Origin: a virus
Strand: one strand, 5' to 3'
DNA: 64,000 bases
Virus record (IMG/VR): IMGVR_UViG_3300030060_002740
Coordinates: 1-64,000 of that record
Position 1 is the first letter of the stretch. Each line of letters starts with the position of its first letter. Below are positions 46,148 through 64,000 of the stretch, one piece after another. The notes below the pieces were generated by a model, which saw only the letters and a program-made list of their open reading frames with translations, was not told the DNA's origin and did no database searches. The position numbers were made by a program, and so were the translations under genes.

Positions 46148-46843
46148 TTGTGTTACATGTGGAACATACGAGGGGGCGTTATTTTGACTGTAACAAGAAA
46201 AAGATGTCGTCTTTGTATGCACGAAGACAGGGAAATCTTTGAGAGAGATTTGGAGAGTATGCACCTTCACCCTGATGACTTGGACAGTAGGATGAACTGG
46301 CCTAGTGGGACATCTGCCAAACATCAGAGAAATCACATGGGAGGTTATGCTGATGCCTCTAACCCCAAGTGTGCATTGTGTGTTTATGAGAATCGTTCAG
46401 AAATTGAACAGGAATTGTATTCGGGAGATATGACTCCTGAACTTGCCGCCAAGATAGTGGGTTGTTCAAAGGAGCAAGTTGTTAGACACATCAAGAAACA
46501 TACACAACCATTGGTGCAAAAAGCAGCAGCACAAATATTGGCGACAAAGGAAGTCAATGAGATTGATACCCTAAGTGGTAACATCACTAACCTTGAGAGA
46601 AAGTTGGAAGCCTTGTTTGAGATAGAAGACTTAGACCACAAATCAATTGATTCACTGACAAAGTTAGCGAAGGAAGTAAGAGAGTCGCTAAAGTATCTAA
46701 TGGAGTTCAAGGGTAAACTCGTTCACAGAAGACAAGACACAATCATTGTTCATCAAATGCAGATTATCAAAGAAGTGTTAGCACAAAACCATCCCGAAGT
46801 TTGGTTGGATGTCAGAAAACAAATGGAGGATAAGTTACAATGA
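46148..46843 (+). CDS. Putative terminase small subunit / DNA-binding protein
   Basis: Two CxxC+HTH-like repeats (CRLCMH..., CALCVY...) followed by a coiled coil; upstream of terL. Confidence 0.45.
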   Translation: MCYMWNIRGGVILTVTRKRCRLCMHEDREIFERDLESMHLHPDDLDSRMNWPSGTSAKHQRNHMGGYADASNPKCALCVYENRSEIEQELYSGDMTPELAAKIVGCSKEQVVRHIKKHTQPLVQKAAAQILATKEVNEIDTLSGNITNLERKLEALFEIEDLDHKSIDSLTKLAKEVRESLKYLMEFKGKLVHRRQDTIIVHQMQIIKEVLAQNHPEVWLDVRKQMEDKLQ

Positions 46844-48639
46844 GTTGGTCAAGGGTTCTGAAGAGAAAGACTCTACGGGATAAGGTAGTTCAAGCATCCA
46901 AGGATGGTAACTTCGATGAACTTCTTCAGAACCATAAACCCGCACAATTGCGTAGAGCAGTAAACGAATTATTAGACATTGATATGCCACAAGAGAGGTT
47001 TCAGCCTTTGTTGGATAAACTTGGAACTGCTAAGAGGGTTGATGGTAAAAGAAACCCTGAATATGAAGACCCTAATACTAAGGAAATAGAAATGTATGAA
47101 TCCTTCATGAAAGGTAATCACGAAGAATTACTTACATTCCTAACAGAAGGAGGAAGAAGCACAGTAACAAATAGAATTTCACGCTTGATGAAATGGAACT
47201 CTGAGAACGGAGATGCACTTCTGAAATACGTCAAGGATAAACCCGAACTCTATGGCTACATCACTAAGGACATAACACTCACACTACCCAATAACTTTGA
47301 TAGGGATATTTTGGATGATTACCAATTTGTAATGGAGAGAGGTATCAAAGTAACTTTACCTGAGTTCCTAACAATAGAACAAGGAAAGGCACTTGCAGGT
47401 GGTCAGCCATCACAACCAATTGAGAGAACTGCTTTTGCTAGAATCTTCAAAGCCCCTGAATACAAGGATAAGATTGTAGCAACTTCTGTCAAATTAGAGG
47501 AAAGCACAATTGATGGTGGATTTGCAGCAGATTATCTGAACATGGTTGTAACAAATCTACGTGGTAATACAAGAGAACCATTCATGCCTACATTCTCAGT
47601 ATCAGAAGCCCCTTCTTCGGGACAAATTAGAGAAGCACAAAAGTTGTTCTTCGGTGCTAAGACTGGTGGAGGCACAAGTAGGATGTATCCCGCAATGGAG
47701 TATATTCTAAGAAATGAGAAGTTGGACTTGGATGTTGGTTTTGTTAGAACTCAAACTAAGGAAACACTACAAGAAGTGGAGTTGGCTAATAAGTTCCAAA
47801 GGGCAGAGATAGATGATGAGGAATTGAATAAGTTATACAATAAGTTTGTAAAAACCAAGACTGATGAGGATGGTAATGTAACAAGCGTTACAGGTTATGC
47901 TAACTTCAAACGAGCAGTTGTTGATGCAGGGCTTGAAGACAGGTATAACAAGTTCTTGAAAGAAACCCAAGTCAGACGCTATACTCTACCTGTTGAAGTT
48001 AGAGATGCTTTAGTTGCTATGATTGACAATGAAGCAGATGATAAACAAGTTAAATTGGTAAAGGCCAAATTAGGGCATCTATTCTCAAAGGTTGGTTTCA
48101 AGCGTTCAGTCAGAGAGATGCGTAAGAAGAAGGTAAACTACGGCGACCCTGATAAGATAAAAGAGGCTCTACTTTCTATGGAAGAAAAAGCAGAGGGAAC
48201 TGTTTCTATAACAGACAAACTATTCCTTGAGAGAGTTAACTTCCTATTCGATGATGTAGACCAAGACCCATTGGGTAATTTCCTTTCGGGAATGGATAGT
48301 GGTGGTAAGTTTAGATTAAGGGATATGCAACTTTCTTCTAAGCAGGTTCTACAATTTTCAGATTTATTGGTTATGGTTCTACAATTATCGAGAAAGATGT
48401 TGAGGGATTCTAAGTTGCAAATGTCCTTGAAGAGATTACTTAGAGAAACAGATGCTAAGAAAAAGAAAGAAACGGAAGACGAGTTTAAGACAAAACTATC
48501 AGAATCATATTCTAAAATACATAAAGGTGTATTAGACGCAATAAGAAGAAAGATGGTGCAAGTGATGGAAGAACCATTGCTACACAATAAATCAGGAGCG
48601 ATTCAACCATACGATTGGATTAACGAGAACAGGAGTTGA
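46840..48639 (+). CDS. Large hypothetical protein (possible internal virion protein)
   Basis: Begins MSWSRVLKRK; head-module context. Confidence 0.5.
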   Translation: MSWSRVLKRKTLRDKVVQASKDGNFDELLQNHKPAQLRRAVNELLDIDMPQERFQPLLDKLGTAKRVDGKRNPEYEDPNTKEIEMYESFMKGNHEELLTFLTEGGRSTVTNRISRLMKWNSENGDALLKYVKDKPELYGYITKDITLTLPNNFDRDILDDYQFVMERGIKVTLPEFLTIEQGKALAGGQPSQPIERTAFARIFKAPEYKDKIVATSVKLEESTIDGGFAADYLNMVVTNLRGNTREPFMPTFSVSEAPSSGQIREAQKLFFGAKTGGGTSRMYPAMEYILRNEKLDLDVGFVRTQTKETLQEVELANKFQRAEIDDEELNKLYNKFVKTKTDEDGNVTSVTGYANFKRAVVDAGLEDRYNKFLKETQVRRYTLPVEVRDALVAMIDNEADDKQVKLVKAKLGHLFSKVGFKRSVREMRKKKVNYGDPDKIKEALLSMEEKAEGTVSITDKLFLERVNFLFDDVDQDPLGNFLSGMDSGGKFRLRDMQLSSKQVLQFSDLLVMVLQLSRKMLRDSKLQMSLKRLLRETDAKKKKETEDEFKTKLSESYSKIHKGVLDAIRRKMVQVMEEPLLHNKSGAIQPYDWINENRS

Positions 48640-48643
48640 GCAA

Positions 48644-51430
48644 ATGATATCAGATGAAGAATTATACAACGCATTTAGGATTTTAATGCTTGAGCCTGAT
48701 GAGTTCGATGAGTTTACTGAGAGGATGGTTGCTGAACAGTATAAGGATGAAGACCCTAAAGCAATAGCAGATAAGGTTGAATTAGAAGCCGATGATAGAG
48801 CAGAAGACTATCTTAGGTCTTTCAAGCCTGAGTTCCTATACAACTTGATTAAAGATGATGCAGACTTCATGGAGAATGGGAAGTTATCTTCTAAGTATCA
48901 GAAGTCAGGCAAACAATTGGGAGAACTAACTCAATTACTGATAGAGGACATTTCTTCCAAACACGAAGAGTTTGAAGAAATACCCGATGCTATCAGAAAT
49001 AGCATGATTAAGAAATTATTAGAGTTAGGCGGTGTATCAGGTAGAGTTCTGACTACTGACTTAGAAGAAGCAACAACTGACCCTAGTAGGTCTATTGCAG
49101 TTGATGTTAAGAAATTGGATAAGGTTTTGAGGGCTTTTTTAGATGAAACTGGTAAACAGTTAACGTACAAGAATACAATAGAGAGTGGTGTAAAGAAAAG
49201 AAGTGATTTTGCCTCAACAGAAGCATATGAGGAATACTTAGAATCAATAAAAGGTAAACCACGTCAAGAAAGAGATTTAAGCAGAGTTTCGTTGAAGAAT
49301 AGAAACATAAGGAAGAAAGAAGTAGAACAGATGAAGTTTATTCTTGAGAATCAAAAGCCTTCTGTCAGAGACAGGCTTTCACCGTTAATGGTTGTATTGA
49401 GACAATTCGATAAGGTAGAAGAGAGAATAATTCAATTAGACGCTGACCAAATAATTGGTGAGTTGGATTTGAAGATGCTGAATAGAAGAAACAGAATCTA
49501 TTCCTTTTGGAAAGACCATCAAGGTAAGTATGGTGATTTCAAAGAAGCGTATAACAATTGTAGGACTGCATTCGCTAAAATACTAGCACCCTTGATTGAA
49601 GAGAATAAGGAAAACAAAGAAATCCAAGAGTTCAAAAAAATATTAGATAATTTCTTGGGATTTGCATCAGCAATAAACAATGACGAAATGAACTATGTTG
49701 TTAAGTTCAAACCAAAGGACATGGAAGTTTACTTTAGGAATCACAAGGGACTTGCTCTATATGAGAAGTTCATGGAAGATAGTGGTTTAGTTCGTGGTGA
49801 AACAAGGGAAGACGAAGATAGGAAAGCGAGAAGCGAGGGGTACTATGATGAGACAACTGGTGAATTCAAGGAAACCGTTTCCGTAGAAGGTGTCGAAACT
49901 CTTGATTCTGAGGAAGAAGTAATGGAAGCAGAGAGGAAAAAGGAAATGGAAGAACTCTCATTGTTTGGAGCAAAACTCAAGAGGCTTGAAAGCAAGAAAG
50001 TAGACCCACTATACTATCACGCATTCACTAAAGAAACAGGAGCGTTCAAGGATACTGTTGCCTTTGCCCAAGATATTCAAGCAATTCGTGAAGCCATGTT
50101 AGGTGCGGGAGCAGTTAGAGAAATGGCTACTGGTATTGATATGGATGACGAGATAAATGATTACGTCAACCAATTAGAAAGAACATTAGCAAGAGGAGGA
50201 AATGGCCCGTATTATCTACCATTATCTGAATCTGTTAGTAAGTTTGCAATCGAAGAGAACTGGAATGCTGACCCTATAAGTCTGAATACTGCAAGGGGAA
50301 TCAACAATCGTCTTAGACAGATTGGAGACTTCTTGGATAATCTCAGCCAAATCTTAGATGCAGGGGATGATTTGGATAGAGCGTCAGCACCCAGTTCCGC
50401 AATTGCAGATAAACAGGGAGAAGGTGTACCAAGTCAGAAGATGCCGCACCTTGGAACAAAGAACAGAAAAGACCATCTCGATAAAATCGAAGAGGCAAGA
50501 GAAGAGTTTGATGATTTGATAGAAGCAGTGTTAGATTACTTCGTAGTTCCTATGAGCGGTTCAAACAAACCATTCGATGACCCTCTACCTTTCGACACAA
50601 AGACAAACAAGACCCGTAGGATTTTCAGAGCATTAGCAACAGGAAAAACCGACACTGCATTGTTCAAGGTATTAGCACTGGAAGGCAGAGCAGGTTATAC
50701 AATGGTGAAAGCCTCAGAGTTAGAAAGCCTAACGAGAATGTTGGAGTTCTTACAAGATATAGAAGGTAGGAAAGACTTGCCTACTTTGGTTAATGAATTG
50801 GAAAAGGGAATCAAAACTGTCAATTTCATAATGCTAAACAAAAAAGGTTCTGCACTAGCAGAGGAAACTATGGTAGAGTTTGGTCATTATCTACATGAAG
50901 TCTTAGAGGCTAACGATATATCTTGGCCTTCCGACATGAAGTTCCCGAATAACAGTAGAGGCAAGACTCCCGAAGAGTGGAGTCAGATGTATGATACTGG
51001 TAAGGTGTATCCGTTTGAAGCAATAGAAACTCACATCAAGAGGAACATTGGAGGATACTCAGACAGTATGAGAACAATGGTTAGGGGTAGTGATAGAAGA
51101 GGAAAAGGCTCTAACACTATTGTTCAAAGATTCATCAATGCGATAAATGGAATGAAGATTCTAAGAAGTGAAAAGGAAAACACAATCCTATCGGTTCATG
51201 ACGAGATTCGTAAGATGATGGGTAAACCCGTATACTACAACAATGCTAAGTTGGACAACTATGACCATGTAAATAGTGCAATTGGTCTGATGAAATCAAG
51301 ATTCAAGGTTGATGTAACTGCACATGAAGTGGAGTCCATTGTAGGTGAATTGAACTCAATGGAAGAACTGAGCAAAAAGCATGGTGTTCCAAAGGAAGGT
51401 GTATATTTCTTGAAGGCTAATTTCAGGTGA
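48644..51430 (+). CDS. Large acidic helical hypothetical protein (928 aa)
   Basis: Long ORF; no motif recognised. Confidence 0.55.
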   Translation: MISDEELYNAFRILMLEPDEFDEFTERMVAEQYKDEDPKAIADKVELEADDRAEDYLRSFKPEFLYNLIKDDADFMENGKLSSKYQKSGKQLGELTQLLIEDISSKHEEFEEIPDAIRNSMIKKLLELGGVSGRVLTTDLEEATTDPSRSIAVDVKKLDKVLRAFLDETGKQLTYKNTIESGVKKRSDFASTEAYEEYLESIKGKPRQERDLSRVSLKNRNIRKKEVEQMKFILENQKPSVRDRLSPLMVVLRQFDKVEERIIQLDADQIIGELDLKMLNRRNRIYSFWKDHQGKYGDFKEAYNNCRTAFAKILAPLIEENKENKEIQEFKKILDNFLGFASAINNDEMNYVVKFKPKDMEVYFRNHKGLALYEKFMEDSGLVRGETREDEDRKARSEGYYDETTGEFKETVSVEGVETLDSEEEVMEAERKKEMEELSLFGAKLKRLESKKVDPLYYHAFTKETGAFKDTVAFAQDIQAIREAMLGAGAVREMATGIDMDDEINDYVNQLERTLARGGNGPYYLPLSESVSKFAIEENWNADPISLNTARGINNRLRQIGDFLDNLSQILDAGDDLDRASAPSSAIADKQGEGVPSQKMPHLGTKNRKDHLDKIEEAREEFDDLIEAVLDYFVVPMSGSNKPFDDPLPFDTKTNKTRRIFRALATGKTDTALFKVLALEGRAGYTMVKASELESLTRMLEFLQDIEGRKDLPTLVNELEKGIKTVNFIMLNKKGSALAEETMVEFGHYLHEVLEANDISWPSDMKFPNNSRGKTPEEWSQMYDTGKVYPFEAIETHIKRNIGGYSDSMRTMVRGSDRRGKGSNTIVQRFINAINGMKILRSEKENTILSVHDEIRKMMGKPVYYNNAKLDNYDHVNSAIGLMKSRFKVDVTAHEVESIVGELNSMEELSKKHGVPKEGVYFLKANFR

Positions 51431-51434
51431 TAAG

Positions 51435-51935
51435 ATGTTAGAGTTTCAAGAGATGTCTGAGGATGATGCCGTTAGAGTATTCTTAGATGATGGGTATTAT
51501 GAATACCAAAAAAGAAGAGAGCGTTACCAAAAAATATCTCCTAATTCATCTTGGGCTACTGCACCCGCAAGAATGTTTGTTGGTTTTTTAGAAGATAAAC
51601 CAGTAGGAGTTATTGGTTTTTCTAAATACAAAGGAGTTTTGTTAGGAGCAGGTATTCACGTTAGAAGAGGATTTAGAGGTAGAGGACTATCACAATTATT
51701 AGTTCAAAAACTCATAGAGGAAAAAGGAGGTCAAACTCTTTTTGTTAATATCGGCAACCCAAGAATTGCTAACACATATAGAAGATACGGATTCAAAGAT
51801 ATGAATGAAGAAGAGTTACCCGATGAATCAAGAAATGCTATTCAAGGATTAGAATTTGCCGACCAAGTTCAGAAGTGGGTTTGGGGAGTTCATCGAGATG
51901 TTTGGTTTGATGTGGTGAAAAATGGAATTAGATGA
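51435..51935 (+). CDS. GNAT-family acetyltransferase
   Basis: IHVRRGFRGRGLS (motif A), N..IANTYRRYGF. Confidence 0.8.
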   Translation: MLEFQEMSEDDAVRVFLDDGYYEYQKRRERYQKISPNSSWATAPARMFVGFLEDKPVGVIGFSKYKGVLLGAGIHVRRGFRGRGLSQLLVQKLIEEKGGQTLFVNIGNPRIANTYRRYGFKDMNEEELPDESRNAIQGLEFADQVQKWVWGVHRDVWFDVVKNGIR

Positions 51936-53355
51936 TTTAGATTTTGTTTCAGCAATGGATATGGAACTATCTAAAACTTCATTTCCATACTTTTTTCAGA
52001 ATGTTCTTGGAATGATGTTTCCCCCATACATGCAAGAATGGCTAGAGACAATGGAAAAAACAGATAGAACTGTTATTGTTTGTAGTCGTGACCACGGAAA
52101 ATCTGTTTTTATGCACAGTTGGGTAGTATGGAATCTTGTCTTTCAAGAACCACCATATCAAATGCTTTACATTTCCTCTAACCAAAAGCAGACTCTTGTT
52201 CACATGAGAGAGATTGACAGATACTTCAATCACCCTGCTCTTAAGAAATACAAACCCAGTAGAGGTTGGGCTATTGGAAATATACAATTAACAAACGGTA
52301 ACGCTATCTTGGAGCGTTCCGTTGGTTCTCAAATCAGAGGACTTCACCCACAGGAGATTATCATTGACGACCCTTTGAAGGAGTTCAGTCTTGCAGGTAT
52401 TCAACGAGTTACTGATTGGTTCTTCGGAGATATGATACCAACACTTCATCATACATCTAAGTTGAGGATGATTGGAACTCCATTTACCTATACAGATATC
52501 TTTGCTCAGTTAGAGGAAAATGAAGCATATTCTGTTCAGAAGTATCCATGTCTAAACTCTTTGAATGAACCACTATGGCCTGAGCGTTGGGACTATGACG
52601 CACTAATGAAGAGAAAAGCAGAAATAGGCTCTCTCAAGTTTACAAGAGAATATCTTTGTGTTCCTATATCTACGGGAACTGCTCTATTCAATCCTGAGTT
52701 TATCGAGAAGTGCAAGAACAAGGACTATGTTTTGAAACTTGGACATCGTAAGGAGAAGGGATACAAGTATTATGTGGGCGTTGACCCTGCCATCTCAACA
52801 GATGGAGACTACAATGTAATCACGGTTTTGGAAGTTGATGATGAGAAAAATAAAACCATAGTCCATGTAGATAGGGCCAAGAATGTAGAGTTCAGAGAGA
52901 ACATAGAGAAGATTAGATTAATTGGTAAAATCTTTGAACCAGAAGAAATACTCTATGAAACCAACACGTTTGCAAAAGCATTCACACAGGAACTAAGAAA
53001 CATATCCGATTTGAATGTTAGAGATTTTACCACTACAAGAAAAAAGAAGCAAGAGATAATTCTGAGTCTTCAAATGAACATAGAAAATGGAAAAATAAAC
53101 TTTCCATATGGCGATAATGCAAGCAGAAGATTGACGAATGCTTTGATAGAGGAACTGTCTATGTTCTCTATTACCACTGCCGGAAAGTTTGAGGGTGTAG
53201 GAGCGCATGACGACTTAGTTATGAGTTTAGCATTGGCAGTGGCTTGTGCTACAAAGACATCAGATGTGTTCCTGTTGTTAGATGATATGGGAATATTTGA
53301 TGAGCCTAAACCAATGAACAGGTCTTTAGGCGGAATGATGGGGCTGAACTTCTAG
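51922..53355 (+). CDS. terL: Terminase large subunit
   Basis: SRDHGKS, IRGLH, IIIDD, IGTP, GVDPA, HDDLVMSLALA. Confidence 0.93.
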   Translation: MELDDLDFVSAMDMELSKTSFPYFFQNVLGMMFPPYMQEWLETMEKTDRTVIVCSRDHGKSVFMHSWVVWNLVFQEPPYQMLYISSNQKQTLVHMREIDRYFNHPALKKYKPSRGWAIGNIQLTNGNAILERSVGSQIRGLHPQEIIIDDPLKEFSLAGIQRVTDWFFGDMIPTLHHTSKLRMIGTPFTYTDIFAQLEENEAYSVQKYPCLNSLNEPLWPERWDYDALMKRKAEIGSLKFTREYLCVPISTGTALFNPEFIEKCKNKDYVLKLGHRKEKGYKYYVGVDPAISTDGDYNVITVLEVDDEKNKTIVHVDRAKNVEFRENIEKIRLIGKIFEPEEILYETNTFAKAFTQELRNISDLNVRDFTTTRKKKQEIILSLQMNIENGKINFPYGDNASRRLTNALIEELSMFSITTAGKFEGVGAHDDLVMSLALAVACATKTSDVFLLLDDMGIFDEPKPMNRSLGGMMGLNF

Positions 53356-53366
53356 GGGGGTAGTGC

Positions 53367-54695
53367 GTGACGGAGGAAGATAGCGAAATCTTGGAAGATA
53401 TTCTTGAGCGAACAAAGCGAAGAGAGACTTTAGACCAAGAAATCGAAGAACGCACTAAGGATTTGAAACGCGCTTGGCTATCCAGTGTTCCAATAGAAGA
53501 CCACAGTATTTTGGAAAAGAAATACGCAGAAGATTTCAGAATGAGCCTATCTGATGCAAGAAAGGAATTGAAGTATACTCTGACTAAGTATGAGATTGAG
53601 GGTTCTGATATTCCAAAGACAATAAAGGAATTGAAAAAATACCGAAGGACTCTCAAAGGAGAGGACAAGGTGAAGATTACCAATTCGATTGAGAATTTAA
53701 TCAAGGCATATTCTGACCACTTGGATAAGAGTATGGATGACATTTACTGGATTAGTAAGTATAAACCAGTTCTCAAAGACATGACTTGCTCGGAAGATAA
53801 TCTAATCAAACTATCATATGTTGATGATGCAAGTACAAGGCGAGAACTAGTTGATACTCTCTGTAAATATTGGGAAGCAAAAATAGAGAAGGAGGGTATG
53901 CCCTTCAATTCTGACTACTCAAGATTAACAAAGGAAATGACTAACACAAAAAGACAATTCAAAAGATTGCTGAAGAAGCATATGAAAACCACTTCTCCAA
54001 AGGATAAAATCAAACATCACATTCTAAAATCAATATGTGAAGAACCCGGAATATCAGCAAGGCAGATACATGAGAGACTACCGAAGAGTCTCTTTACTAG
54101 AACAACACCAAACGTTATTGCTAAAATGGCTAAACAGGAAAACATCACCACTGTTAATGGTGCTTTCTACAAGTTTAGTGATGAGATAAAGAAAGACATC
54201 TATGCCTATACTGCTGCGTTTATTGATTCTGATGGCTACATTACAATGGATAAGAATTACAATCCAAGAGTCGGTTTGGTTGCAACAGGAGAAAGAGGCA
54301 AGGCTTTCATGATGGAGATGCACAAGTCATTGGGATGTGGCAGATTGCATCTTGACCAAAAATCTCCACAGGACACAAGACCAGTAAACAGGTTGAACTT
54401 TTATTCGGGTGCTGATGTTACAGAACTACTCACAAAATGTAGGCCACATTTCAGAATGAAAGGTAAGAATGCTGACATTCTATTAGAGTTAATCAGAATG
54501 AAGAAATCGCATAAGAAGGCTGATTGGTACAAAGAAAGAAGGGAAGAACTATTCAAGTTGATGAAATATGAGAATCATAAAGACCACGTAGGTTATGATT
54601 TCACACGATATGATATTGATATTGATAGTGTTGCCAAGTTACATGATAATTGTAAGATGGGTGCAATGGATGTTATTGAGGGGGTGATTGCATGA
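53367..54695 (+). CDS. LAGLIDADG endonuclease-domain protein with helical N-terminus and HTH
   Basis: YTAAFIDSDGYI; PGISARQIHERL wHTH-like segment. Confidence 0.7.
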   Translation: MTEEDSEILEDILERTKRRETLDQEIEERTKDLKRAWLSSVPIEDHSILEKKYAEDFRMSLSDARKELKYTLTKYEIEGSDIPKTIKELKKYRRTLKGEDKVKITNSIENLIKAYSDHLDKSMDDIYWISKYKPVLKDMTCSEDNLIKLSYVDDASTRRELVDTLCKYWEAKIEKEGMPFNSDYSRLTKEMTNTKRQFKRLLKKHMKTTSPKDKIKHHILKSICEEPGISARQIHERLPKSLFTRTTPNVIAKMAKQENITTVNGAFYKFSDEIKKDIYAYTAAFIDSDGYITMDKNYNPRVGLVATGERGKAFMMEMHKSLGCGRLHLDQKSPQDTRPVNRLNFYSGADVTELLTKCRPHFRMKGKNADILLELIRMKKSHKKADWYKERREELFKLMKYENHKDHVGYDFTRYDIDIDSVAKLHDNCKMGAMDVIEGVIA

Positions 54696-55587
54696 CTTGG
54701 TTTGACGTTCTAAAAAGAAAGTCTGGTAGGCGAGGAAAAAAGGCTCGCAAGAAGAGAAAGAAAGGTAAGTCAAAGGTGAATCAGGCTGGTAATTACACAA
54801 AGCCCACTATGAGGAAGAAACAGTTTGCAAGAATCAAAGCAGGTAGCAAAGGTGGCCCTGCGGGTAAGTGGTCAGCGAGAAAGGCACAGTTGCTTGCTCG
54901 GAGATACGAGAAAGCAGGTGGTGGCTATCGTGACTGATTGGTTTGATATCATTAGGAAAAAAAGTAAACCCCGAAGAAGAAAGGGTGCTAAGTCTAGTAA
55001 GAAAAAACTTAGGCGTAGAAAACAAAAGAAAAATCTGAAGCAGGGTCAACAGGCTCTTGTAGAATGGACTGATGAAGAGTGGGGAAGTGCAGAACAACAC
55101 AGTGCCAAAGAAAAAGGAAAAAAAGCACCCTCCAAGACAAAGGGCAGATATATGCCAAAGGCTACTTACAAAAGAACTCCTAAATCTAGGTTGAAGTATC
55201 AAGATAAAAAGAAAAAAGAGGGACGTAAGAAAGGAAAGCAAAACGTCCCAACAGGAAAGAAATTCTCTCAGAAGTGATATTATGGATTGGTTTGAAGTTC
55301 TAAAGAAAAAGGGCAAGCACCCTGCTTTGAAGAGAGCGGGTGTTAGTGGTTTCAGTAAACCAAAAAGAACTCCTAAGCATCCTAAGAAATCTCATGTGGT
55401 TGTCGTCAAAGATGGCAAAAAGGTAAAGACTATTCGCTTTGGGCAACAAGGTGCTGATACAGTAACCGAGAAAGACCCAAAGGGAAAAAGAAAAAAGAAA
55501 CAAGCATCATTCAAGGCTCGCCATGCTAAGAATATTAAGCGGGGGAAAATGTCTGCGGCGTATTGGGCTAACAAGGTAAAGTGGTAA
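54692..55587 (+). CDS. Three very basic small proteins (54692-54937, 54930-55277, 55282-55587), candidate DNA-condensing core proteins
   Basis: Extreme Lys/Arg content; GKWSARKAQLLARRYEKAGGGY and IRFGQQG...SFKARH...AAYWA motifs. Confidence 0.65.
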
Positions 55588-57248
55588 GTATGGTAGAAGA
55601 AAGAAGAAGATTTAGTTTAACAAATTTGTTTAGGCAAACTACGCCTAAGCCCGCAGATAGAACAGTATACAATCCGGGTATACAAGAGAGAGATAATTCA
55701 TATCTTTTGACTAGTCCAATCATCTATCACATAGTATCTCAATCAACTATTGTTAGAACCTGTATCACTCAGTTGAAACAGGAGATATTCAGAAGAGGAT
55801 ATCATTGGGATTCTAAGTTTGCTCTAAAATGTAGAAATTGTGGTAAGGAACACGAAAACACAGTAAAGCAATGTGTTGAATGTGAAAGCACTGATTTGGC
55901 AAAGCCTAATGTTGAACAACTAAAATATGCTAAAGAGTTCTTAGATGGGTATGTGAATTGCTCAGAGCAGATGTTTATTGATGTCCTAAAGGAACTTGAA
56001 GATGACTTGAATATAATGGATGACGCATACTTGGTAATGGTAAAGGAATACTATGCCGATAACAACTCCAAGGTCAGGATGCACAGAATAAAGGAAGTAT
56101 ACAGAGGCGACCCAGTTACTATGCACATCTATTCAAACGATTTGGGAGAAAGAGGCAAAGCCGGATATACTTGTTTAAGACATAGAGATAGAGTATATTC
56201 AAGTCCAACTGAACTTTGCGAAACTTGTAATTCAGAACTCTATCCTATTCATTATGTTAACAGGGTAAATGGTGAAGAACAGTATTTCGTAAAGGGAGAA
56301 GTTCTACACTTCAGCAAATACTCTCCAAGTAGATTATATGGACTTTCACCTATAATCACTCTATGGAATAATGTTACAACATTGATTGCTATGGAGAATT
56401 ATGTTAACTCATCATATACCAAAGCAAGAATGCCGAAGGGACTTCTTGCTGTTCAAACAAGAAACATGGATTCGATGAAGTCATTTTGGCGTGGTGTCAA
56501 AGAAAAGATGGAGCAAGACCCACACTTCATACCTGTAATGGGAATAGAGGGAGAAGGCGGTAAGGGTTCTGTTGAATGGGTCAAGTTCATGGACAGTCTA
56601 AAAGAAATGGATTACATACAAGTTAAGGATGATTTGAGAGATAGGATTTCAGCATTCTATGGTGTGAGTAAAATCTTCATGGCAGATAACTCTGCAAGTG
56701 GTGGATTGAACAATGAGGGTATGCAAGTATTAGTTACTAATAGAGCAGTTGAAATGGCTCAAACAATTTGGAATAACTATGTGTTCCCATTTATGACGGA
56801 AGAATTTGGTATAACTGATTGGCGTTTGAAACTACCACCATCCGAAGAAGAGGATGAAATTGCAGTTCTACGTAAAAGAGAGATAGAAGTGAATGTCGCT
56901 GCTGCAATTAAAAACTTAGGATTTGAAGTAGACATGGATGATGAAGGTGGATTCATTTACACAAAACCTGAACCTAAAGAACCAACAGAAGGAGAAGGTG
57001 AAGAAGGTAGCGAAGAAGTTGAATTAGACCCATACGCCGGAACTGATATTGATGCCTCTCAACTAGGACAATTACAAGAACAAATGATGGGTGGTGGAAA
57101 TAAGTCTGAGAGCAAACCTCAAGAGAACCCCCCCGCTACGAGAAACAAACCATCTATGGCAACTGGGCCGGATAAAAGATTTACAGGATTACCAAGAGAA
57201 GCCGGAAATGAAAATGTTGACGAAAGAACAGAGAGGAGAGTAGGATGA
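55581..57248 (+). CDS. Portal protein with zinc-ribbon insertions
   Basis: LYGLSPI, PKGLL, ISAFYGV; CRNC/CVEC and C..CETC inserts; downstream of terL. Confidence 0.85.
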   Translation: MVSMVEERRRFSLTNLFRQTTPKPADRTVYNPGIQERDNSYLLTSPIIYHIVSQSTIVRTCITQLKQEIFRRGYHWDSKFALKCRNCGKEHENTVKQCVECESTDLAKPNVEQLKYAKEFLDGYVNCSEQMFIDVLKELEDDLNIMDDAYLVMVKEYYADNNSKVRMHRIKEVYRGDPVTMHIYSNDLGERGKAGYTCLRHRDRVYSSPTELCETCNSELYPIHYVNRVNGEEQYFVKGEVLHFSKYSPSRLYGLSPIITLWNNVTTLIAMENYVNSSYTKARMPKGLLAVQTRNMDSMKSFWRGVKEKMEQDPHFIPVMGIEGEGGKGSVEWVKFMDSLKEMDYIQVKDDLRDRISAFYGVSKIFMADNSASGGLNNEGMQVLVTNRAVEMAQTIWNNYVFPFMTEEFGITDWRLKLPPSEEEDEIAVLRKREIEVNVAAAIKNLGFEVDMDDEGGFIYTKPEPKEPTEGEGEEGSEEVELDPYAGTDIDASQLGQLQEQMMGGGNKSESKPQENPPATRNKPSMATGPDKRFTGLPREAGNENVDERTERRVG

Positions 57249-58578
57249 GTTGGGAAGATACGATAAGAAAGAATGTGTTTGATAAAAACCCTAATGATAT
57301 GACTGACTTTATGAATGTCAGTCCTAGAATGGAAAGGGAAGCAGAAAAGAGAACACAGGGGGAAAATAGATACAAGATAGAGAGAATGTTACTGGATGCT
57401 TCTGTTGCTTTAGGTAATGCAGAAAAGTTGTTAACTGAGTTAAATAGAGAACATAAAGATGAATTAAACTCTACTGAATATATGAAAGGAGATAGATTAA
57501 AGAATAGTATGTCTAAACTCATAAGAAGAAGTGTAAAGAACATCTCAGTTGTTGAAAAAGAATTGTTTAGGTGATTTAGAATGAGTTGGCGGGTTATTCT
57601 GAAAGAGGTTTCTTGTCCTTTAGCCACTCAAGATTTAATGTTGAATACAAAAAATAGAGATGCTTCAGTAAAAAATCCTAACATCAGATATGGCCCACTT
57701 AATCTTGAAGATGAAGATTATTGGGTAGAATATGGAAAGAGATGGAATACTACTGCTGATGTAGCAAAAGAATCTAATTGTAGCAATTGTGTTGCTTTTG
57801 ATATATCACCGAGAATGGATGACTGTATGCCGTTGACTACTGATGAAGATGGATATTTAGGTTACTGTTGGATGCACCATTTCAAATGTCATTCAGCAAG
57901 AACATGTTATACTTGGGCTAAAGGTGGCCCAATAGATGATGATGCAACATCAAAAGAAAATCAAATGAGGGGTAAACAATGAATTGGTTCGATGTATTAA
58001 AGAAATTAAAAGGTAAACAAAAACTACTTGACAAAGATGATGATGGAGATATTGATGAAGAAGACTTCAAAGCACTAAGGGAGGAGAAGGAATGAGTTGG
58101 CAAGATATACTAAAAAACGAGATGGACATAAAGACATTAGAAGAAATAGCAGGTGAATTGGAGAAAGCAGTTGAAGCACATGGTTCTCAAGCAAAGAGAA
58201 TCAGAGAGATAATTTCTCAATACAAGAAAGAACCACCCACAAAAATGCCCTCACCACAATACATAACCAATAGGCCAAAAACCGCAGGGCAACAGTCTAT
58301 GATAGATAGAGCAACTAGGAACTTGAGAGAACAAGAGAGAAGGTGATTACATGAGTGAAGAAAAAACAGTAAGAGAGTTAGAAAGAGAATTGAAGGCAGC
58401 AAGGGTTAGAGAAAGAAAGGAACACACCGATAAGGTGACTGTTAGTAGAGACTATTCTATTGGTGGTATTGATAGAGATACCACAGTAGAAAAGAAAAGT
58501 CCTGATTCTGCTGATATACCTGATGCTATTCTGCTACCTAAGAGTAAGAGAAACCGAAGAGAGAACATACCTTTCTGA
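57245..58578 (+). CDS. Five small head-module proteins (57245-57574, 57581-57982, 57979-58095, 58092-58346, 58351-58578)
   Basis: Coupled ORFs; four begin M-[SN]-W. 57581 has CSNC..C..C; 57979 has an EF-hand-like DKDDDGDIDEED. Confidence 0.6.
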
Positions 58579-58587
58579 GTTGGTTAC

Positions 58588-60417
58588 ATGACATGGACTA
58601 GTATTCTCAAGAGAAGCGAAATCCATGCTGATGTTATGTGGGCTTACAATCAAGCCCAACAACAAGAATCAACCAAGTTTCCTATTGCAGATTTGCGTGA
58701 GGCGCATCGTGCATTAGACGATGCAGCCGAAAAAGACGCAGAAGAAAGAGATGAATCGGAGGCTAAGGTTACAAATATTTTGAGTAGAGGTTTTTTCTCT
58801 AACTCAAGGGATAGGTTAACTCCTGTTGAGTTTGAGAAGGATAAAAGAAAGTTCGTCAACAGAATAAATAATTTAGAAAGATTACTAAACAAAAGAAGTA
58901 CAGAATCTATGAAACTTCCCGAAGGACAGACATTGAACATAAGAGATTTAGATGCTATAAGAGAAGAAAACTCTTTGCTAGAATTATTGTTTGAGGGAGA
59001 GAAAAAAGTTCTCGTTAAACTAAGAGAAGGATTAGGAGAAAGAAAAGATGCTGCCATTGACTTTGCAGAAAAACTTACTGATGCAATGGAATCATGGGAT
59101 AGGTACGGAGATAATACCCGTAGTAGAAATCTTGCTGATAACCTAAGACCACGACTATCATCAGGAGCAAAGAACCTACAAGCATATTTGTTAGAGGGAA
59201 AGGGTCGAATTAGAACTGAGGTTTCTTCTGTATTTCACGAAAAGAATGCAGAGTTCGATGATGAAAGTAAAACTTGGAGTCCTCTTAAGGTATATCCAAA
59301 GGGAAACACTTCCTTGGAATTACTTGAGCAAATATACTCTTATCTTAGAATACCAATAAAAATATCAGGAGAAGATGAAGCCGGAGAGAAGGCAATACGA
59401 AGTTATTTCTCATTGGATGTGGATGGTTTTGTAGAAGAGATTCATGATATGATAGGCAGTGATGACCCAAAGATTCACGCTAAATTATTCTTTAACAAGG
59501 ATGATGTTTTGAGAAAGATATACAGAATAGTTCCTGAAATCATACAGATTGCAGAGGAAAAGATGGATGAGAAGGAAAAGAGGGATTTGCTTACTAAGCA
59601 TTTTGACGTGTTGGAGTATCTGATTAGGATTAATTCTTTGACTGGTGATTATAGTAGACTCAAAGAAAGCAGGTTGGACAAGGTGAAAAGATTTGCTCAT
59701 ATGCGAAAGGGAAAAAGAAATCTCAGTATGAATAGAAACTTCCCGATGTTAGAAGATGCGTATGAGGAGTATGAGGCAAACCCAAGTGAATATCATGAAA
59801 GTGGTAGAAAACAAAGAAGGGCAGGGAAAGACGCTTCTTCTCTACAAACCCTTGGATTGAAACCAATACCTGACGGAGCAGTTAGGGGAACTTACCCTAA
59901 GAAAAAGAAGGTAGAAGACTTACAAAGAGAAATTGTTTCTTTCGGGGAAAAAGCAAGGGAAGCAATCAAAGAAGAACAAAAGAAACTTGCTGTTAACAAG
60001 CCTAAGACAGAAAAAGAAAAAATTCAAGCAGAGAGAACTTTCTTACTTCCTCTCAAGAGGCAGATAGAGAGATACACGAAAGAAGTAGAAGAACTAGGGT
60101 TACTGTTTGAGGATACTCCTGAGTCTGCTGCCGAGTTCCATGACTATGGAGATTTAAGTTCTGATAACTTAGATGAAAAAATAGAAGAAGCAAAGGAGCA
60201 ATTGAAACTCGCAGAGGAGGCAAAATTGGAAGAAGAGGAATTAGAAACATACAAGGATTATGTTGTTACTCTGCAAACTATCAAGAAACTCCCCCAAATT
60301 AGAGAAACAGTTGGTAGGATTCAAAGCATAATAGATTCTGCTAAATATCCTATAATGTCTGAGCAACAATCATTAGATGAACCCTCATCTGAAGATGCAA
60401 AGGAGGAGTCTGCATGA
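58588..60417 (+). CDS. Large helical hypothetical protein (possible internal virion protein)
   Basis: Begins MTWTSILKRS. Confidence 0.55.
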   Translation: MTWTSILKRSEIHADVMWAYNQAQQQESTKFPIADLREAHRALDDAAEKDAEERDESEAKVTNILSRGFFSNSRDRLTPVEFEKDKRKFVNRINNLERLLNKRSTESMKLPEGQTLNIRDLDAIREENSLLELLFEGEKKVLVKLREGLGERKDAAIDFAEKLTDAMESWDRYGDNTRSRNLADNLRPRLSSGAKNLQAYLLEGKGRIRTEVSSVFHEKNAEFDDESKTWSPLKVYPKGNTSLELLEQIYSYLRIPIKISGEDEAGEKAIRSYFSLDVDGFVEEIHDMIGSDDPKIHAKLFFNKDDVLRKIYRIVPEIIQIAEEKMDEKEKRDLLTKHFDVLEYLIRINSLTGDYSRLKESRLDKVKRFAHMRKGKRNLSMNRNFPMLEDAYEEYEANPSEYHESGRKQRRAGKDASSLQTLGLKPIPDGAVRGTYPKKKKVEDLQREIVSFGEKAREAIKEEQKKLAVNKPKTEKEKIQAERTFLLPLKRQIERYTKEVEELGLLFEDTPESAAEFHDYGDLSSDNLDEKIEEAKEQLKLAEEAKLEEEELETYKDYVVTLQTIKKLPQIRETVGRIQSIIDSAKYPIMSEQQSLDEPSSEDAKEESA

Positions 60418-61281
60418 GTTGGCAAGATGTTCTAAAGGAAGAGGGATTCTACTTCGCTCCTGTTTTCATTGAGAAACTCGACGGTAAGCAGAAAAAGAAG
60501 TTGAAGAAACTCATACAGAAGGCCCAACCAACAAACATGATGGGTCAAGACATGACTCAACTCTCAGATATAATCGAAGAACTGAAAGATATGGATTTAG
60601 TAAAATCCGACAAGAAACTAAGTAAAACCGTAGAAGGGTTTGATGAGAAGAACTTGGATATCCTCGCTTCTGCCTCTGAGTTGAGGAAAGACTACGAAAC
60701 ATTATTCACACAACTAAGGAAAATGGTTTATCCACCATCAAAGAAAGGTAAGCAGTGATACAATGAATTGGAAAGAAGAACTAAGAATACGGATTAAAGA
60801 AAGTTTATCTAAAATGTATGAGGAGGAAGCATACAATGAGTGACGAGATGTTGATGCTGATGAAAGAATTGGTAGACAAAGTGAAAGCCTTAGAGCAAGC
60901 AGTTTACCACAAAGACAACCTATTGATGAAATCAGGATTTGTTGTTTACGATTCACCTACACCCACAATGAATAGTAAAGATGTTGTAGGTAGTAGTACG
61001 ATAAAAAAGAGTATGGATTGGGAAGACATACATGAATTAGTAAAACAGATGGAGTGAGCGATATGCCGGAGAGAGTAACAAAAGAAGAGAAAGTAGTCGA
61101 ATTGGCTATTGCAAAAGCAAAAGAAGTATTGCAAGAGGCTAAACACCTTGGGCAGTTAGAGTTAGATGAGCCTCTTACTGGTGAAGAAGTAAAAGTAAAA
61201 AGACCAAAGAAGAATCCTTCGGAAGAACCTTTGCCAAAAACAAGTAATGTCGAAGGAAAAGAAGATAAGTTAAATGACTGA
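60414..61281 (+). CDS. Small head-module proteins (60414-60758, 60763-60843, 60836-61057, 61054-61281)
   Basis: Coupled ORFs; first two begin MSWQDVLK and MNWKEELR. Confidence 0.55.
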
Positions 61282-63945: not shown

Positions 63946-64000
63946 ATGCTGATGATGGGTACTCCTTTACTAAAGGCTGAGAGTAACCATGAGTTTAGTA
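63946..64000 (+). CDS. Start of next late gene (truncated), possibly the prohead protease
   Basis: MLMMGTPLLKAESNHEFS...; product guessed from position only. Confidence 0.25.
   Translation, partial: MLMMGTPLLKAESNHEFS

Follow-up and report, generated by a model that had tools for sequence, protein, structure and literature searches.

A short peptide shared by the ends of unrelated head-module proteins of magroviruses, a candidate capsid-targeting tag

Introduction

Why should a series of unrelated proteins in a viral head module begin with the same eight residues? The question is raised by a 92-kb magrovirus genome, which includes a stretch of 64,000 nucleotides (IMG/VR record IMGVR_UViG_3300030060_002740, positions 1 to 64,000; the window). 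Magroviruses rank with the most abundant viruses of archaea in the ocean, and both virus and host are uncultured. A preliminary description of the window noted the word W-x-x-[ILV]-[LI]-[KR] at the start of about ten proteins and proposed, by analogy with phage T4, a portable tag that loads cargo into the prohead and/or marks a prohead-protease cut after the lysine.

Terminal peptides of this kind are known from several shells. In encapsulins, unrelated cargo proteins carry a short peptide at one free terminus, which may be either end, and are docked by it inside the HK97-fold shell. Duda et al. are said to have described in 2013 that in HK97-type systems the protease or scaffold enters the procapsid by way of its C-terminal end, which binds the capsid protein. 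The capsid-targeting sequence (CTS) of T4 ends in a gp21 site, L/I-x-E. This CTS is the sole common feature of the T4 internal proteins; it brings them into the scaffolding core and is cut off by the prohead protease, and among the proteins that bear it are an enzyme and anti-defence proteins delivered together with the DNA (PMC3012670; PMC7411985). In P1, the first 30 residues of DarB direct a reporter to the capsid, and the Dar proteins have no shared consensus (PMC9024508). Cargo fused to the coat-binding part of the scaffold enters procapsids in the P22 VLP (PMC9962691), and scaffold ends contact the N-arm helix of the capsid protein (PMC12749128). We found no published description of the magrovirus tag in the literature; if it directs proteins to the capsid, it would be the first such signal described in an archaeal virus.

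Results and discussion

The tag occupies free protein ends within the head module

The consensus M-x-W-x-x-[IVT]-[LI]-[KR] opens ten genes between 46.8 and 60.8 kb (Table 1), against a chance expectation of 0.05 N-terminal matches computed from the composition of the proteome (107 genes). All ten strong copies listed earlier were recovered. In the gene-caller set the tag is present on 8 of 14 genes inside 46.8-60.8 kb and on none of the 93 genes elsewhere in the genome (Fisher p = 9e-9); the caller overlooked two real tagged genes, which brings the true inside count to 10 of 16. The motif is thus enriched in this module rather than equally frequent in other genes, and its reported absence from replication-module proteins is borne out. 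The copy at 60763, described from the outset as weaker, heads an ORF of just 26 residues that is conserved only in the relative L003; it stays weak, and its status as a tag is uncertain. The PSSM by which sites are ranked was trained solely on tags from other genomes and scanned over 26,247 positions of this one.

Table 1 Tagged sites and neighboring head genes (positions in the window unless given as genome positions)
Feature	Position	Strand	Carrier or remark
MKKSWADIIK	44097-44126	+	within ORF 43839-44429; eighth-best PSSM site
DWKGMLAR, degenerate C-terminal tag	45956-45979	+	386-aa protein (44822-45982)
MSWSRVLK, N-terminal tag	46840-46863	+	conserved 599-aa protein (46840-48639, family 16)
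VWFDVVK, C-terminal tag	51900-51920	+	GNAT acetyltransferase (51435-51935), Pfam Acetyltransf_1
Large terminase subunit	51922-53355	+	phrog_38 at 1e-55; Terminase_6C
MTWFDVLK	54692-54715	+	tag of very basic 81-aa protein (54692-54937)
M-TDWFDIIR, GTG start	54930-54956	+	tag of very basic 115-aa protein (54930-55277)
MDWFEVLK	55282-55305	+	tag of basic 101-aa protein (55282-55587)
Portal protein	55581-57248	+	centre of tagged region; phrog_18178 at 4e-64; PF04860
MSWEDTIR	57245-57268	+	tag of 109-aa protein; ATGA overlaps portal stop codon
MSWRVILK	57581-57604	+	tag of Cys-rich 133-aa protein
MNWFDVLK	57979-58002	+	tag of 38-aa protein with DxDxDGxID loop
MSWQDILK	58092-58115	+	tag of 84-aa protein; top PSSM score of the whole proteome
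MTWTSILK	58588-58611	+	tag of conserved 609-aa protein (family 18)
MSWQDVLK	60414-60437	+	tag of conserved 114-aa protein (family 3, in 73 loci)
MNWKEELR, weak tag	60763-60786	+	26-aa ORF
MDWEDIHE, scaffold-type C-terminal word	61013-61036	+	conserved 79-aa protein (60818-61057)
Prohead protease (Peptidase_S78)-scaffold fusion	from 63946, past the window to genome position 65187	+	
PLLK site	63964-63975		protease-scaffold fusion
SILK-S site	63997-64011		protease-scaffold fusion
MSWEDIHALTRGD	genome 65146-65187		C-terminus of protease-scaffold fusion
Major capsid protein	genome 65190-66584		after protease-scaffold fusion

The figure of about ten proteins holds for this genome and understates the motif. 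Across 80 related loci the tag heads 354 ORFs of 154 families unrelated by blastp, and all of these ORFs lie on the portal strand at no more than about 15 kb from the portal gene. Five genomes that are 94-100% complete gave 46 pattern matches, every one on the portal strand and near the portal; the reversed pattern gave none in the same five. A scan of IMG/VR as a whole for the tag pattern returned almost only magrovirus-like contigs, and the locus of one relative has about 25 consecutive tagged genes. The original observation is confirmed and is stronger than first stated.

Position within the protein is equally restricted. N-terminal copies number 354 (0.8 expected) and C-terminal copies 34 (1.4 expected), while the 45 internal copies are scattered and occur at the chance rate (about 45 expected over all positions). 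Chance was rejected as an explanation. C-terminal copies are conserved in the GNAT family, in which 23 of 27 members end W-x-x-h-h-[KR], and in families 23 and 27; in the family of the 386-aa protein, 9 of 12 members end DW[RK].I[IM]K... The additional copies named in the preliminary description, namely VWFDVVK of the GNAT protein, SWADIIK (44109) and SWFNILR (44776), are all present. At the point of MKKSWADIIK the homologues in L027 and L030 begin MTWFSLVRK and MAWFSLVRK, and a comparison with them suggests that this internal methionine is probably the true tagged start of a conserved basic domain.

The tagged proteins share a consensus that can be summarized as MSWxDILK and more fully as M-[S/T/N/D]-W-x-[D/E/N]-[I/V/T]-[L/I]-[K/R]. 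In the alignment of family 16 (A4; about 600 aa, most sequences 15-31% identical to the first), few columns are invariant or nearly so, and M1, W3 and L7 belong to them; in relatives of family 18 the tag reads MTFMDVLK or MSYMDILR. In agreement with the early remark that the signal resides in the peptide, all six leucine codons are in use and lysine is encoded by AAA and AAG in a ratio of 151/100. Every synonymous codon is used at tag positions 6-8, with the amino acids fixed. As synonymous codons vary freely, selection acts on the peptide. A signal in the mRNA or for translation initiation is ruled out by this synonymous variation and by the copies at C-termini and in the scaffold.

The tag is an add-on to otherwise unrelated proteins

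Could the tagged genes be diverged paralogues that have kept an ancestral N-terminus? Some local expansions are true paralogues, such as the ...ILKNIQISSQRTSSKDYV series in L189. With the tag masked, however, the 154 families are left without detectable similarity and span 29 to 822 aa, and the bodies include a GNAT enzyme, a PAP2-like domain, Cys-rich and DxDxDG-loop proteins, and basic PHROG families that have untagged phage members, so that common descent appears to us hardly credible. Two of these basic proteins are informative. For the 81-aa protein, phrog_17747 covers residues 20-80 only, and gp59 of the Roseobacter phage CRP-1 is a full-length match that has neither the tag nor the K/R linker. 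For the 101-aa protein, phrog_7595 covers residues 10-101 (profile positions 3-96 of 96), and gp31 of the Lentibacter phage ICBM2 matches over its full length without a tag. As judged from these alignments, the tag is an add-on that is absent from the bacteriophage homologues of two tagged proteins.

The junction between tag and body is variable. Relatives of the 115-aa protein retain VTDWF..[IL]K, which is followed by an indel-rich K/R linker, and family 3 has an indel hotspot immediately past the tag. In the AF2 model of the 599-aa protein the tag helix (residues 3-8) has a pLDDT below 50, which argues that the tag is not packed on the body. The tag would form an amphipathic helix of two turns at a free end of the protein, tethered by a flexible and often K/R-rich linker.

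The tagged proteins are enriched in K/R, their median length is about 100 aa, and the turnover of their genes is high between near-identical genomes. No TM-like segment is found in 153 of the 154 families. A signal peptide or membrane anchor was ruled out on this ground and on hydrophilic character. Pfam, PHROGs and NCBIfam gave no match for the 599-, 609-, 928-, 114- and 133-aa proteins; of 20 large tagged proteins from relatives, 19 were likewise without a match and one matched PAP2. Profile searches of the PDB with the cargo gave weak helical matches only, and a search of the ESM Atlas for the identity of the cargo gave nothing usable. The AF2 model of the 599-aa protein (pLDDT 74) found no PDB match at E <= 0.001 and just unnamed viral matches. 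In a phage collection the nearest cultured relatives are the haloviruses HVTV-1, HCTV-1 and HCTV-5, whose proteases are about 29% identical. HVTV-1 lacks such tags, and its protease C-terminus differs, so no cultured model carries the system. The sole find in a scan of genome contigs was a magrovirus contig binned in a Maricaulis MAG.

The first half of the tag matches the C-terminal word of the scaffold

A word of the form (E)M[SD]W.[DE]I[HN].L lies 8-10 residues before the stop in every homologue of the protease-scaffold fusion, and is found as well in some distant S78 protease-scaffolds of 26-54% identity. In the PSSM scan its site in this genome ranks 10th, right after the tags; AF2 models it as a short terminal helix behind a helical hairpin. 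The scan also picked up, blind, the C-terminal word of the 79-aa protein, a member of a 60-member family in which KM[DS]W.[DE]I[HNR] is present in all C-termini listed. The protease-scaffold and the 79-aa protein thus have M-S/D-W-x-D/E-I in common, just before their C-termini. Scaffold word and cargo tag differ at the last two positions (I-H-x vs I-L-K), and for this reason a receptor common to both is something that we infer. A sister clade keeps the scaffold word, yet its genes are not enriched for the tag at the N-terminus, and cargo loading therefore does not follow from the word by itself.

The first half of the tag (hydrophobic, small, W, x, acidic, I/V) appears to copy the C-terminal word of the protease-scaffold fusion and of the scaffold-like 79-aa protein. 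It follows that the tag probably uses the docking site of these two proteins in the procapsid under assembly. Judging from other scaffolds, this site would most likely be the inner face of the HK97-fold capsid protein, or otherwise the scaffold core.

Recognition by a hub other than the procapsid interior has to be weighed against this: the portal or terminase, a chaperone, or enzymes of the virus itself (ubiquitin-like conjugation or GNAT) that would modify the tag, its lysine for instance. Short terminal motifs common to unrelated proteins can be enzyme-recognition sites, the GNAT gene adjoins that of the terminase, and lysine is strongly favored at the last tag position (138 families with K vs 16 with R). 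Yet those same counts leave arginine in about 10% of families, and the tag-rich loci L016, L020, L034 and L039 have no GNAT gene between the 928-aa gene and the terminase. The GNAT protein is itself C-terminally tagged and so resembles cargo more than a reader of the tag. The tagged genes are confined to the head module, and the protease-scaffold fusion carries the same word C-terminally, distant S78 proteins included; both points likewise speak against such a hub, which we consider unlikely.

The second half of the tag resembles candidate protease sites

The capsid protein has a conserved [ILV]-L-K-[SA] at about residue 28 (K28 invariant, L26 and L27 at least 90%), and the same word is conserved directly ahead of the protease domain, in an N-terminal segment of low pLDDT (AF2). 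Both sites are kept in the tag clade and in the sister clade, with different flanks in the latter. These hydrophobic-L-K sites in flexible N-terminal segments are, on the pattern of conservation, probably cutting sites of the prohead protease. The tag ends in the same hydrophobic-L-K, a short word whose recurrence was spotted after the fact; the residues that follow differ, being S or A in the capsid protein and protease and most often K, N, R, A or E after the tag lysine. The S78 prohead protease would probably cut the tag there as well, and the cut would free N-terminally tagged cargo inside the head. A cleavage role is weakened by the C-terminal tags, which a cut after the lysine would not release. 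The N-terminus of the capsid protein is tag-like, MSGY-x-x-T-[MIL]-K; the sister clade has Y-V-R-T-I-T, without the lysine.

The word shared with the capsid protein and the protease, together with the sharp end of conservation past the tag lysine, could also mean that the tag is a protease recognition or degradation signal and nothing else (a propeptide or degron), with no loading and with tagged proteins that are not virion cargo. The prohead proteases of this family work within the procapsid, however, and their substrates must therefore enter first. A cut site does not explain the M-S-W-x-D half, which is common to the scaffold end, where L-K is lacking, and C-terminal copies would shed just 0-5 residues. 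This alternative is accordingly quite improbable in our judgment. The initial proposal of a prohead-loading tag with a cut after lysine is partly supported, both of its halves having gained independent support from sequence.

A candidate cargo-loading peptide

We lean towards the view that the tag is a portable capsid-targeting (cargo-loading) peptide of one magrovirus clade, in which a docking half that mimics the scaffold is joined to a protease-site half. The cargo would be fast-changing soluble proteins, mostly small and basic, along with some enzymes (GNAT, PAP2-like), and would be delivered together with the DNA. The size of the load counts against this: up to about 25 tagged genes per genome, some encoding proteins of 600-870 aa, would be large for a capsid of about 95 kb unless the copy number is low.

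The T4 CTS (IPI-III, Alt) is one close parallel, as a short N-terminal peptide on diverse, fast-evolving proteins that are encoded near the head genes; the magrovirus tag also seems to be built of a docking part followed by a candidate protease-site part. The two have no sequence similarity, and the protease here is a Peptidase_S78 of the HK97 type, not of the gp21 type. Unlike the CTS, the tag belongs to an archaeal virus, is found at C-termini as well, mimics the C-terminal word of the scaffold, and is far wider in distribution (154 families; as many as about 25 genes in one genome), although it is known here from sequence alone. By these comparisons it is an analogue of the T4 CTS and not a member. 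The conserved short C-terminal helix on the S78 protease-scaffold, apart from the catalytic domain, is of the kind found in the HK97 protease tail, P22 gp8, 80alpha, lambda C/Nu3 and herpesvirus scaffold ends. There the signal serves the scaffold or protease itself, whereas here unrelated accessory proteins appear to carry an N-terminal copy. Encapsulin peptides likewise act at either end of cargo encoded near an HK97-fold shell gene (the capsid protein gene of the magrovirus is 3-20 kb downstream). Their consensus differs, and encapsulins lack the portal, terminase and protease, all three of which the magrovirus has; its shell is that of a DNA-packaging virus. The P22 scaffold fusion is synthetic, and, in contrast to the P1 Dar proteins, more than 150 magrovirus families share a single consensus.

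Should the tag load cargo, it would identify which dark-matter genes encode virion-borne and probably host-directed proteins, and the principle of the T4 internal proteins would extend to archaeal viruses by a simple evolutionary route, in which the docking end of the scaffold is copied. On the practical side, eight residues that act at either terminus would offer a compact means of loading proteins into HK97-fold shells.

Breakpoints between relatives fall at or near tag-coding starts

Comparison of this genome (G000) with five relatives (L003, L005, L006, L009 and L010) places the breaks of insertions, deletions and reorderings 0-25 nt from tag-coding starts. Among 271 distinct tag sequences, 217 start with ATGA and serine is AGT in 133; AGT makes up just 23% of serine codons overall. 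These features would suit an element conserved chiefly as a joint for DNA recombination, at which cassettes are exchanged, with the peptide as by-product. The ATGA bias, however, comes from stop/start overlap, the C-terminal and scaffold copies lie away from gene starts, and synonymous usage at positions 6-8 is free while the amino acids are fixed; we regard this reading as very improbable. As a part of the capsid-targeting reading, the tag-coding sequence (ATGAGTTGG...) probably doubles as microhomology for gain, loss and reordering of tagged cassettes.

The fullest form of the proposal, which we offer tentatively, is that magroviruses load into the capsid, and probably deliver, an extensive arsenal in rapid exchange (from more than 150 families, with as many as about 25 in a genome) by means of a two-part eight-residue tag that mimics the capsid-binding end of the scaffold and a protease cut site, and that the tag DNA is also the recombination joint by which cargo genes are shuffled. 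If the tag loads cargo, a protein address label would be tied to the way in which the labelled genes are exchanged at the DNA level. For the insertion relative to L003, the left breakpoint is the 57245 tag and the right breakpoint the 58092 tag.

Restriction of the tag to the head module

The window covers bases 1-64000 of a 92,413-bp record, in which replication genes form a minus-strand block at 8-38 kb (an RFC-like clamp loader, split PolB-like ORFs) and the morphogenetic module a plus-strand block from ~40 kb on, with the tail genes also lying beyond the window. The preliminary description listed ten strong N-terminal copies of a peptide tag, and each was confirmed at its gene start, in the form M-x-W-x-x-[IVT]-[LI]-[KR]; six of these starts overlap the upstream stop codon as ATGA. 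An eleventh copy, at 60763, is present and heads a 26-aa ORF, but it stays weak. The proposed enrichment in the head region also holds: 8 of 14 called genes within 46.8-60.8 kb are tagged vs 0 of 93 outside (p = 9e-9). The gene caller missed real genes at 54692 and 54930, both omitted from this count, which brings the real figure to 10 of 16; proteome composition predicts 0.05 tagged N-termini in 107 genes by chance.

Features of the morphogenetic module (positions in the record)
Feature	Position	Strand
GNAT acetyltransferase	51435-51935	+
Large terminase subunit	51922-53355	+
HNH-like protein	53367-54695	+
Portal	55581-57248	+
ATP-dependent DNA ligase	61297-63900	+
Peptidase_S78 prohead protease fused to scaffold-like C-terminal half	63946-65187 (runs past window)	
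HK97-fold SU10-type major capsid protein	65190-66584 (beyond window)	

The backbone order is fixed across related loci: family 16 (599 aa; 46840-48639), a 928-aa protein, GNAT, terminase, HNH and portal, then a 75-aa protein, family 18 (609 aa; 58588), family 3 (114 aa; 60414), a 79-aa protein, ligase, protease and capsid protein. Variable tagged genes occupy three slots, namely upstream of family 16, in the HNH-portal gap, and after portal and family 3. In sister-clade loci L099, L108, L136 and L087 one protein of 1,800-2,140 aa lies between portal and protease, where this genome has many small tagged genes.

Two side observations concern single genes. ORF 43839-44429 has tag-like words in two places, at 43920 (DLWFDTLH) and at 44097 (MKKSWADIIK). 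The 38-aa tagged protein (57979-58095) consists of little else than the tag and a conserved loop, D-x-D-x-D-G-D-I-D-x-x-D-F, that resembles the calcium-binding loops of EF hands, and may be a tagged calcium-binding miniprotein; its relatives occur in L009, L060, L070, L071, L074, L027, L030 and L046.

Distribution among relatives

A portal protein search returned 369 relatives in IMG/VR, and the best 80 loci were analysed, each together with the 10 kb to its left and right. These 80 loci hold 354 tagged ORFs, every one on the portal strand, which fall into 154 unrelated blastp families once the tag is masked. Position by position the tag reads M-[S>N,T,E,D]-W-[F,E,K,Q]-[D>N,E,S]-[I>T,V]-[L>I,V]-[K 138 / R 16], with W at residue 3 in 308 of the 354 tags. 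Conservation ends one residue past the K, and family members outside the strict pattern carry relaxed forms (F or Y instead of W; LQK, LLK). A degenerate DNA pattern gave 46 matches in five genomes (94-100% complete by CheckV), all on the portal strand and at most roughly 15 kb from the portal, vs 0 for the reversed control in the same genomes. A pattern scan across the whole of IMG/VR returned nearly exclusively magrovirus-like contigs, and 69 of 78 loci have genes in common with this genome. At L189:1091-13921 (IMGVR_UViG_3300025151_000019), ~25 consecutive tagged genes stand within 14 kb.

The tag is a property of the whole virus clade. It is not enriched in the sister clade, whose protease is 42% identical (11 matches per strand in 947 kb from 74 loci), and a search of the cultured halovirus HVTV-1 found none. 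The magrovirus papers and the literature on capsid targeting in archaeal tailed viruses, as searched, do not mention the motif.

The L189 series includes seven successive paralogues, one as long as 806 aa, in which ...ILKNIQISSQRTSSKDYV follows the tag. In sister-clade locus L136, three adjoining post-capsid genes carry AW[RS][VI]LK close to a terminus. Some family 3 members (L052, L062, L063, L069, L075, L081) have a tag split by a 10-12 residue insertion, e.g. MTW-DYYGKGENF-ILKE. A MAG that bears the name of a bacterium, Maricaulis sp., includes L160 (NZMJ01000101.1), a 29-kb magrovirus contig with a portal 72% identical, probably through a binning error.

A peptide at free protein ends

Selection targets the tag peptide, at free protein ends. 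The codon variation noted in the preliminary description is extensive, with all six Leu, all Ile and Val and both Lys codons occurring at conserved tag positions. Among 1,539 plus-strand ORFs the N-terminal motif was observed 354 times vs 0.8 expected, and the motif in the last 14 residues 34 times vs 1.4, while scattered internal copies number 45, against roughly 45 predicted from composition for all positions; in addition, the capsid protein and the ligase each have a conserved internal site. The C-terminal copy reported on GNAT was found in 23 of 27 family members, and C-terminal tags are likewise kept in 9 of 12 members of the family of the 386-aa protein (44822-45982) and in 7 of 9 members of a 177-aa family absent from this genome. 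Use at both ends excludes a role in translation initiation, in N-terminal processing or as a signal peptide; the tag behaves like a docking peptide.

The tag is also an add-on to proteins that already existed. For two small basic proteins, PHROG profiles start past it (residues 20-80 of the 54692 protein, 10-101 of the 55282 protein), and their homologues in bacteriophages, gp59 of Roseobacter phage CRP-1 and gp31 of Lentibacter phage ICBM2, match over their whole length without the tag and K/R linker. The alignments show an indel hotspot immediately past the tag. Family 16 proteins are mostly 15-31% identical to the one in this genome, and the few columns that hardly vary include M1, W3 and L7. 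In the AlphaFold2 model of this 599-aa protein residues 3-8 form a helix with pLDDT below 50, which argues that the tag helix is not packed on the body. Tagged proteins are enriched in K and R, with a median length of ~100 aa, and they are soluble, TM-like segments being absent from 153 of 154 families.

Likeness to the end of the scaffold

All homologues of the protease-scaffold fusion share a word, (E)-M-[S/D]-W-x-[D/E]-I-[H/N]-x-[L/M], 8-10 residues upstream of the stop; in this genome the C-terminal sequence is MSWEDIHALTRGD followed by the stop. For an unbiased check, a position matrix built from the tags of other genomes only was scanned against all 26,247 positions of this proteome. Ranks 1-9 are tagged starts, among them the probable internal start at 44097, and rank 10 of 26,247 is the scaffold word. 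The next-ranked terminal sites are the GNAT C-terminus and MDWEDIHE near the C-terminus of the 79-aa protein (60818-61057), whose family (60 members) has K-M-[D/S]-W-x-[D/E]-I-[H/N/R] in all C-termini listed. AlphaFold2 divides the fusion into four parts: a protease domain modelled with confidence (23-175), a linker that is acidic and disordered (201-296), a hairpin of helices (303-385) and, at 403-412, a short terminal helix that contains the scaffold word. Some of the distant S78 protease-scaffold proteins, at 26-54% identity, have the word too, as does the sister clade, which lacks the tag; the word is therefore older than the cargo tags.

In HK97, P22, 80alpha, lambda and the herpesviruses, it is with its C-terminal end that the scaffold or protease binds capsid protein inside the procapsid. 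Such binding is reportedly described by Duda et al. 2013 (cited in PMC12749128 and PMC7411985). Scaffold ends touch the N-arm helix (PMC12749128). The simplest reading is that cargo tags imitate the docking end of the scaffold, so that a tag would dock in the procapsid like the C-terminal end of the protease-scaffold. Capsid targeting would explain scaffold mimicry, head-module restriction and either-terminus use jointly better than any of the rivals weighed; binding to a different hub, or reading by a modifying enzyme, accounts less well for the three together.

A candidate cleavage half

The capsid protein has a conserved [L/V]-L-K-[S/A] near residue 28 (K28 invariant, L26 and L27 at least 90%) in a Gly-rich stretch that is variable just upstream, and the sister clade has LLK[A/S] at the equivalent place despite different flanks. 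The protease has [F-S/T]-I-L-K-S directly ahead of its first strand, within a low-confidence N-terminal segment (AlphaFold2), and many protease homologues of both clades have a second LLK[A/S] further upstream. These LK sites look like S78 protease maturation sites. The same hydrophobic-L-K word closes the cargo tag, at the place where the scaffold word has I-H-x. These short motifs, noticed after the fact, suggest a two-part tag with a docking half and a cleavage half. The capsid targeting sequence of T4 likewise joins docking to cleavage (PMC7411985), the halves of the magrovirus tag being putative. The residue after K is K, N, R, A or E in cargo vs S or A in the capsid protein and protease. 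A protease-only signal would share the LK word, but it is poorer than capsid targeting as a joint account.

The capsid protein N-terminus (genome 65190-65216), MSGY-[IT]-x-T-[MIL]-K-DLEAATYG, fits a relaxed tag pattern with Y for W; the sister clade has Y-V-R-T-I-T-D-M-E, without K. The last strand of the protease domain (residues 169-173, genome 64450-64462), A-K-F-D-I-L-K, resembles the tag core W-F-D-I-L-K. Distant S78 proteases end the domain in [AS]-[KR]-F-[DE]-[IV]-L, and the likeness may be coincidence.

Cassette breakpoints at tagged starts

Compared with L003 (portal 95% identical), homology breaks at 57248, in the ATGA of tagged gene 57245, and restarts at 58092, on the start codon (ATG) of the next tagged gene that is retained. 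Two tag-coding starts thus flank an insertion or deletion of three tagged genes. Against L005, L006, L009 and L010 the breakpoints lie 0-25 nt from tagged starts, with one reordering. The shared ATGAGTTGG... sequence therefore appears to serve as microhomology for cassette exchange. ATGA begins 217 of 271 distinct tag sequences, the tag Ser is encoded 133 times by AGT, which makes up 23% of all Ser codons, and the S/N/T preference at residue 2 stems largely from the stop/start overlap that ATGA provides. A primary role at the DNA level would suit the breakpoints, but synonymous sites vary and non-start copies exist, so the DNA role comes second to the peptide function; a primary DNA role too explains the three features jointly less well than capsid targeting.

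The small basic tagged genes (window 54784-54928 and 55378-55603) show 69-80% nucleotide identity over 100-200 nt to genes that marine bacteriophages carry, namely Roseobacter phages SIO1 and CRP-1 and Lentibacter phage ICBM2, which suggests that bacterial and archaeal viruses of the same waters share genes. At L064:10322-11122 one reading frame joins a soluble, tagged domain of the PAP2 superfamily (Pfam 2.6e-13) to a copy of the small basic protein, with KWQDILHKK as the surviving internal remnant of the tag that this copy once had.
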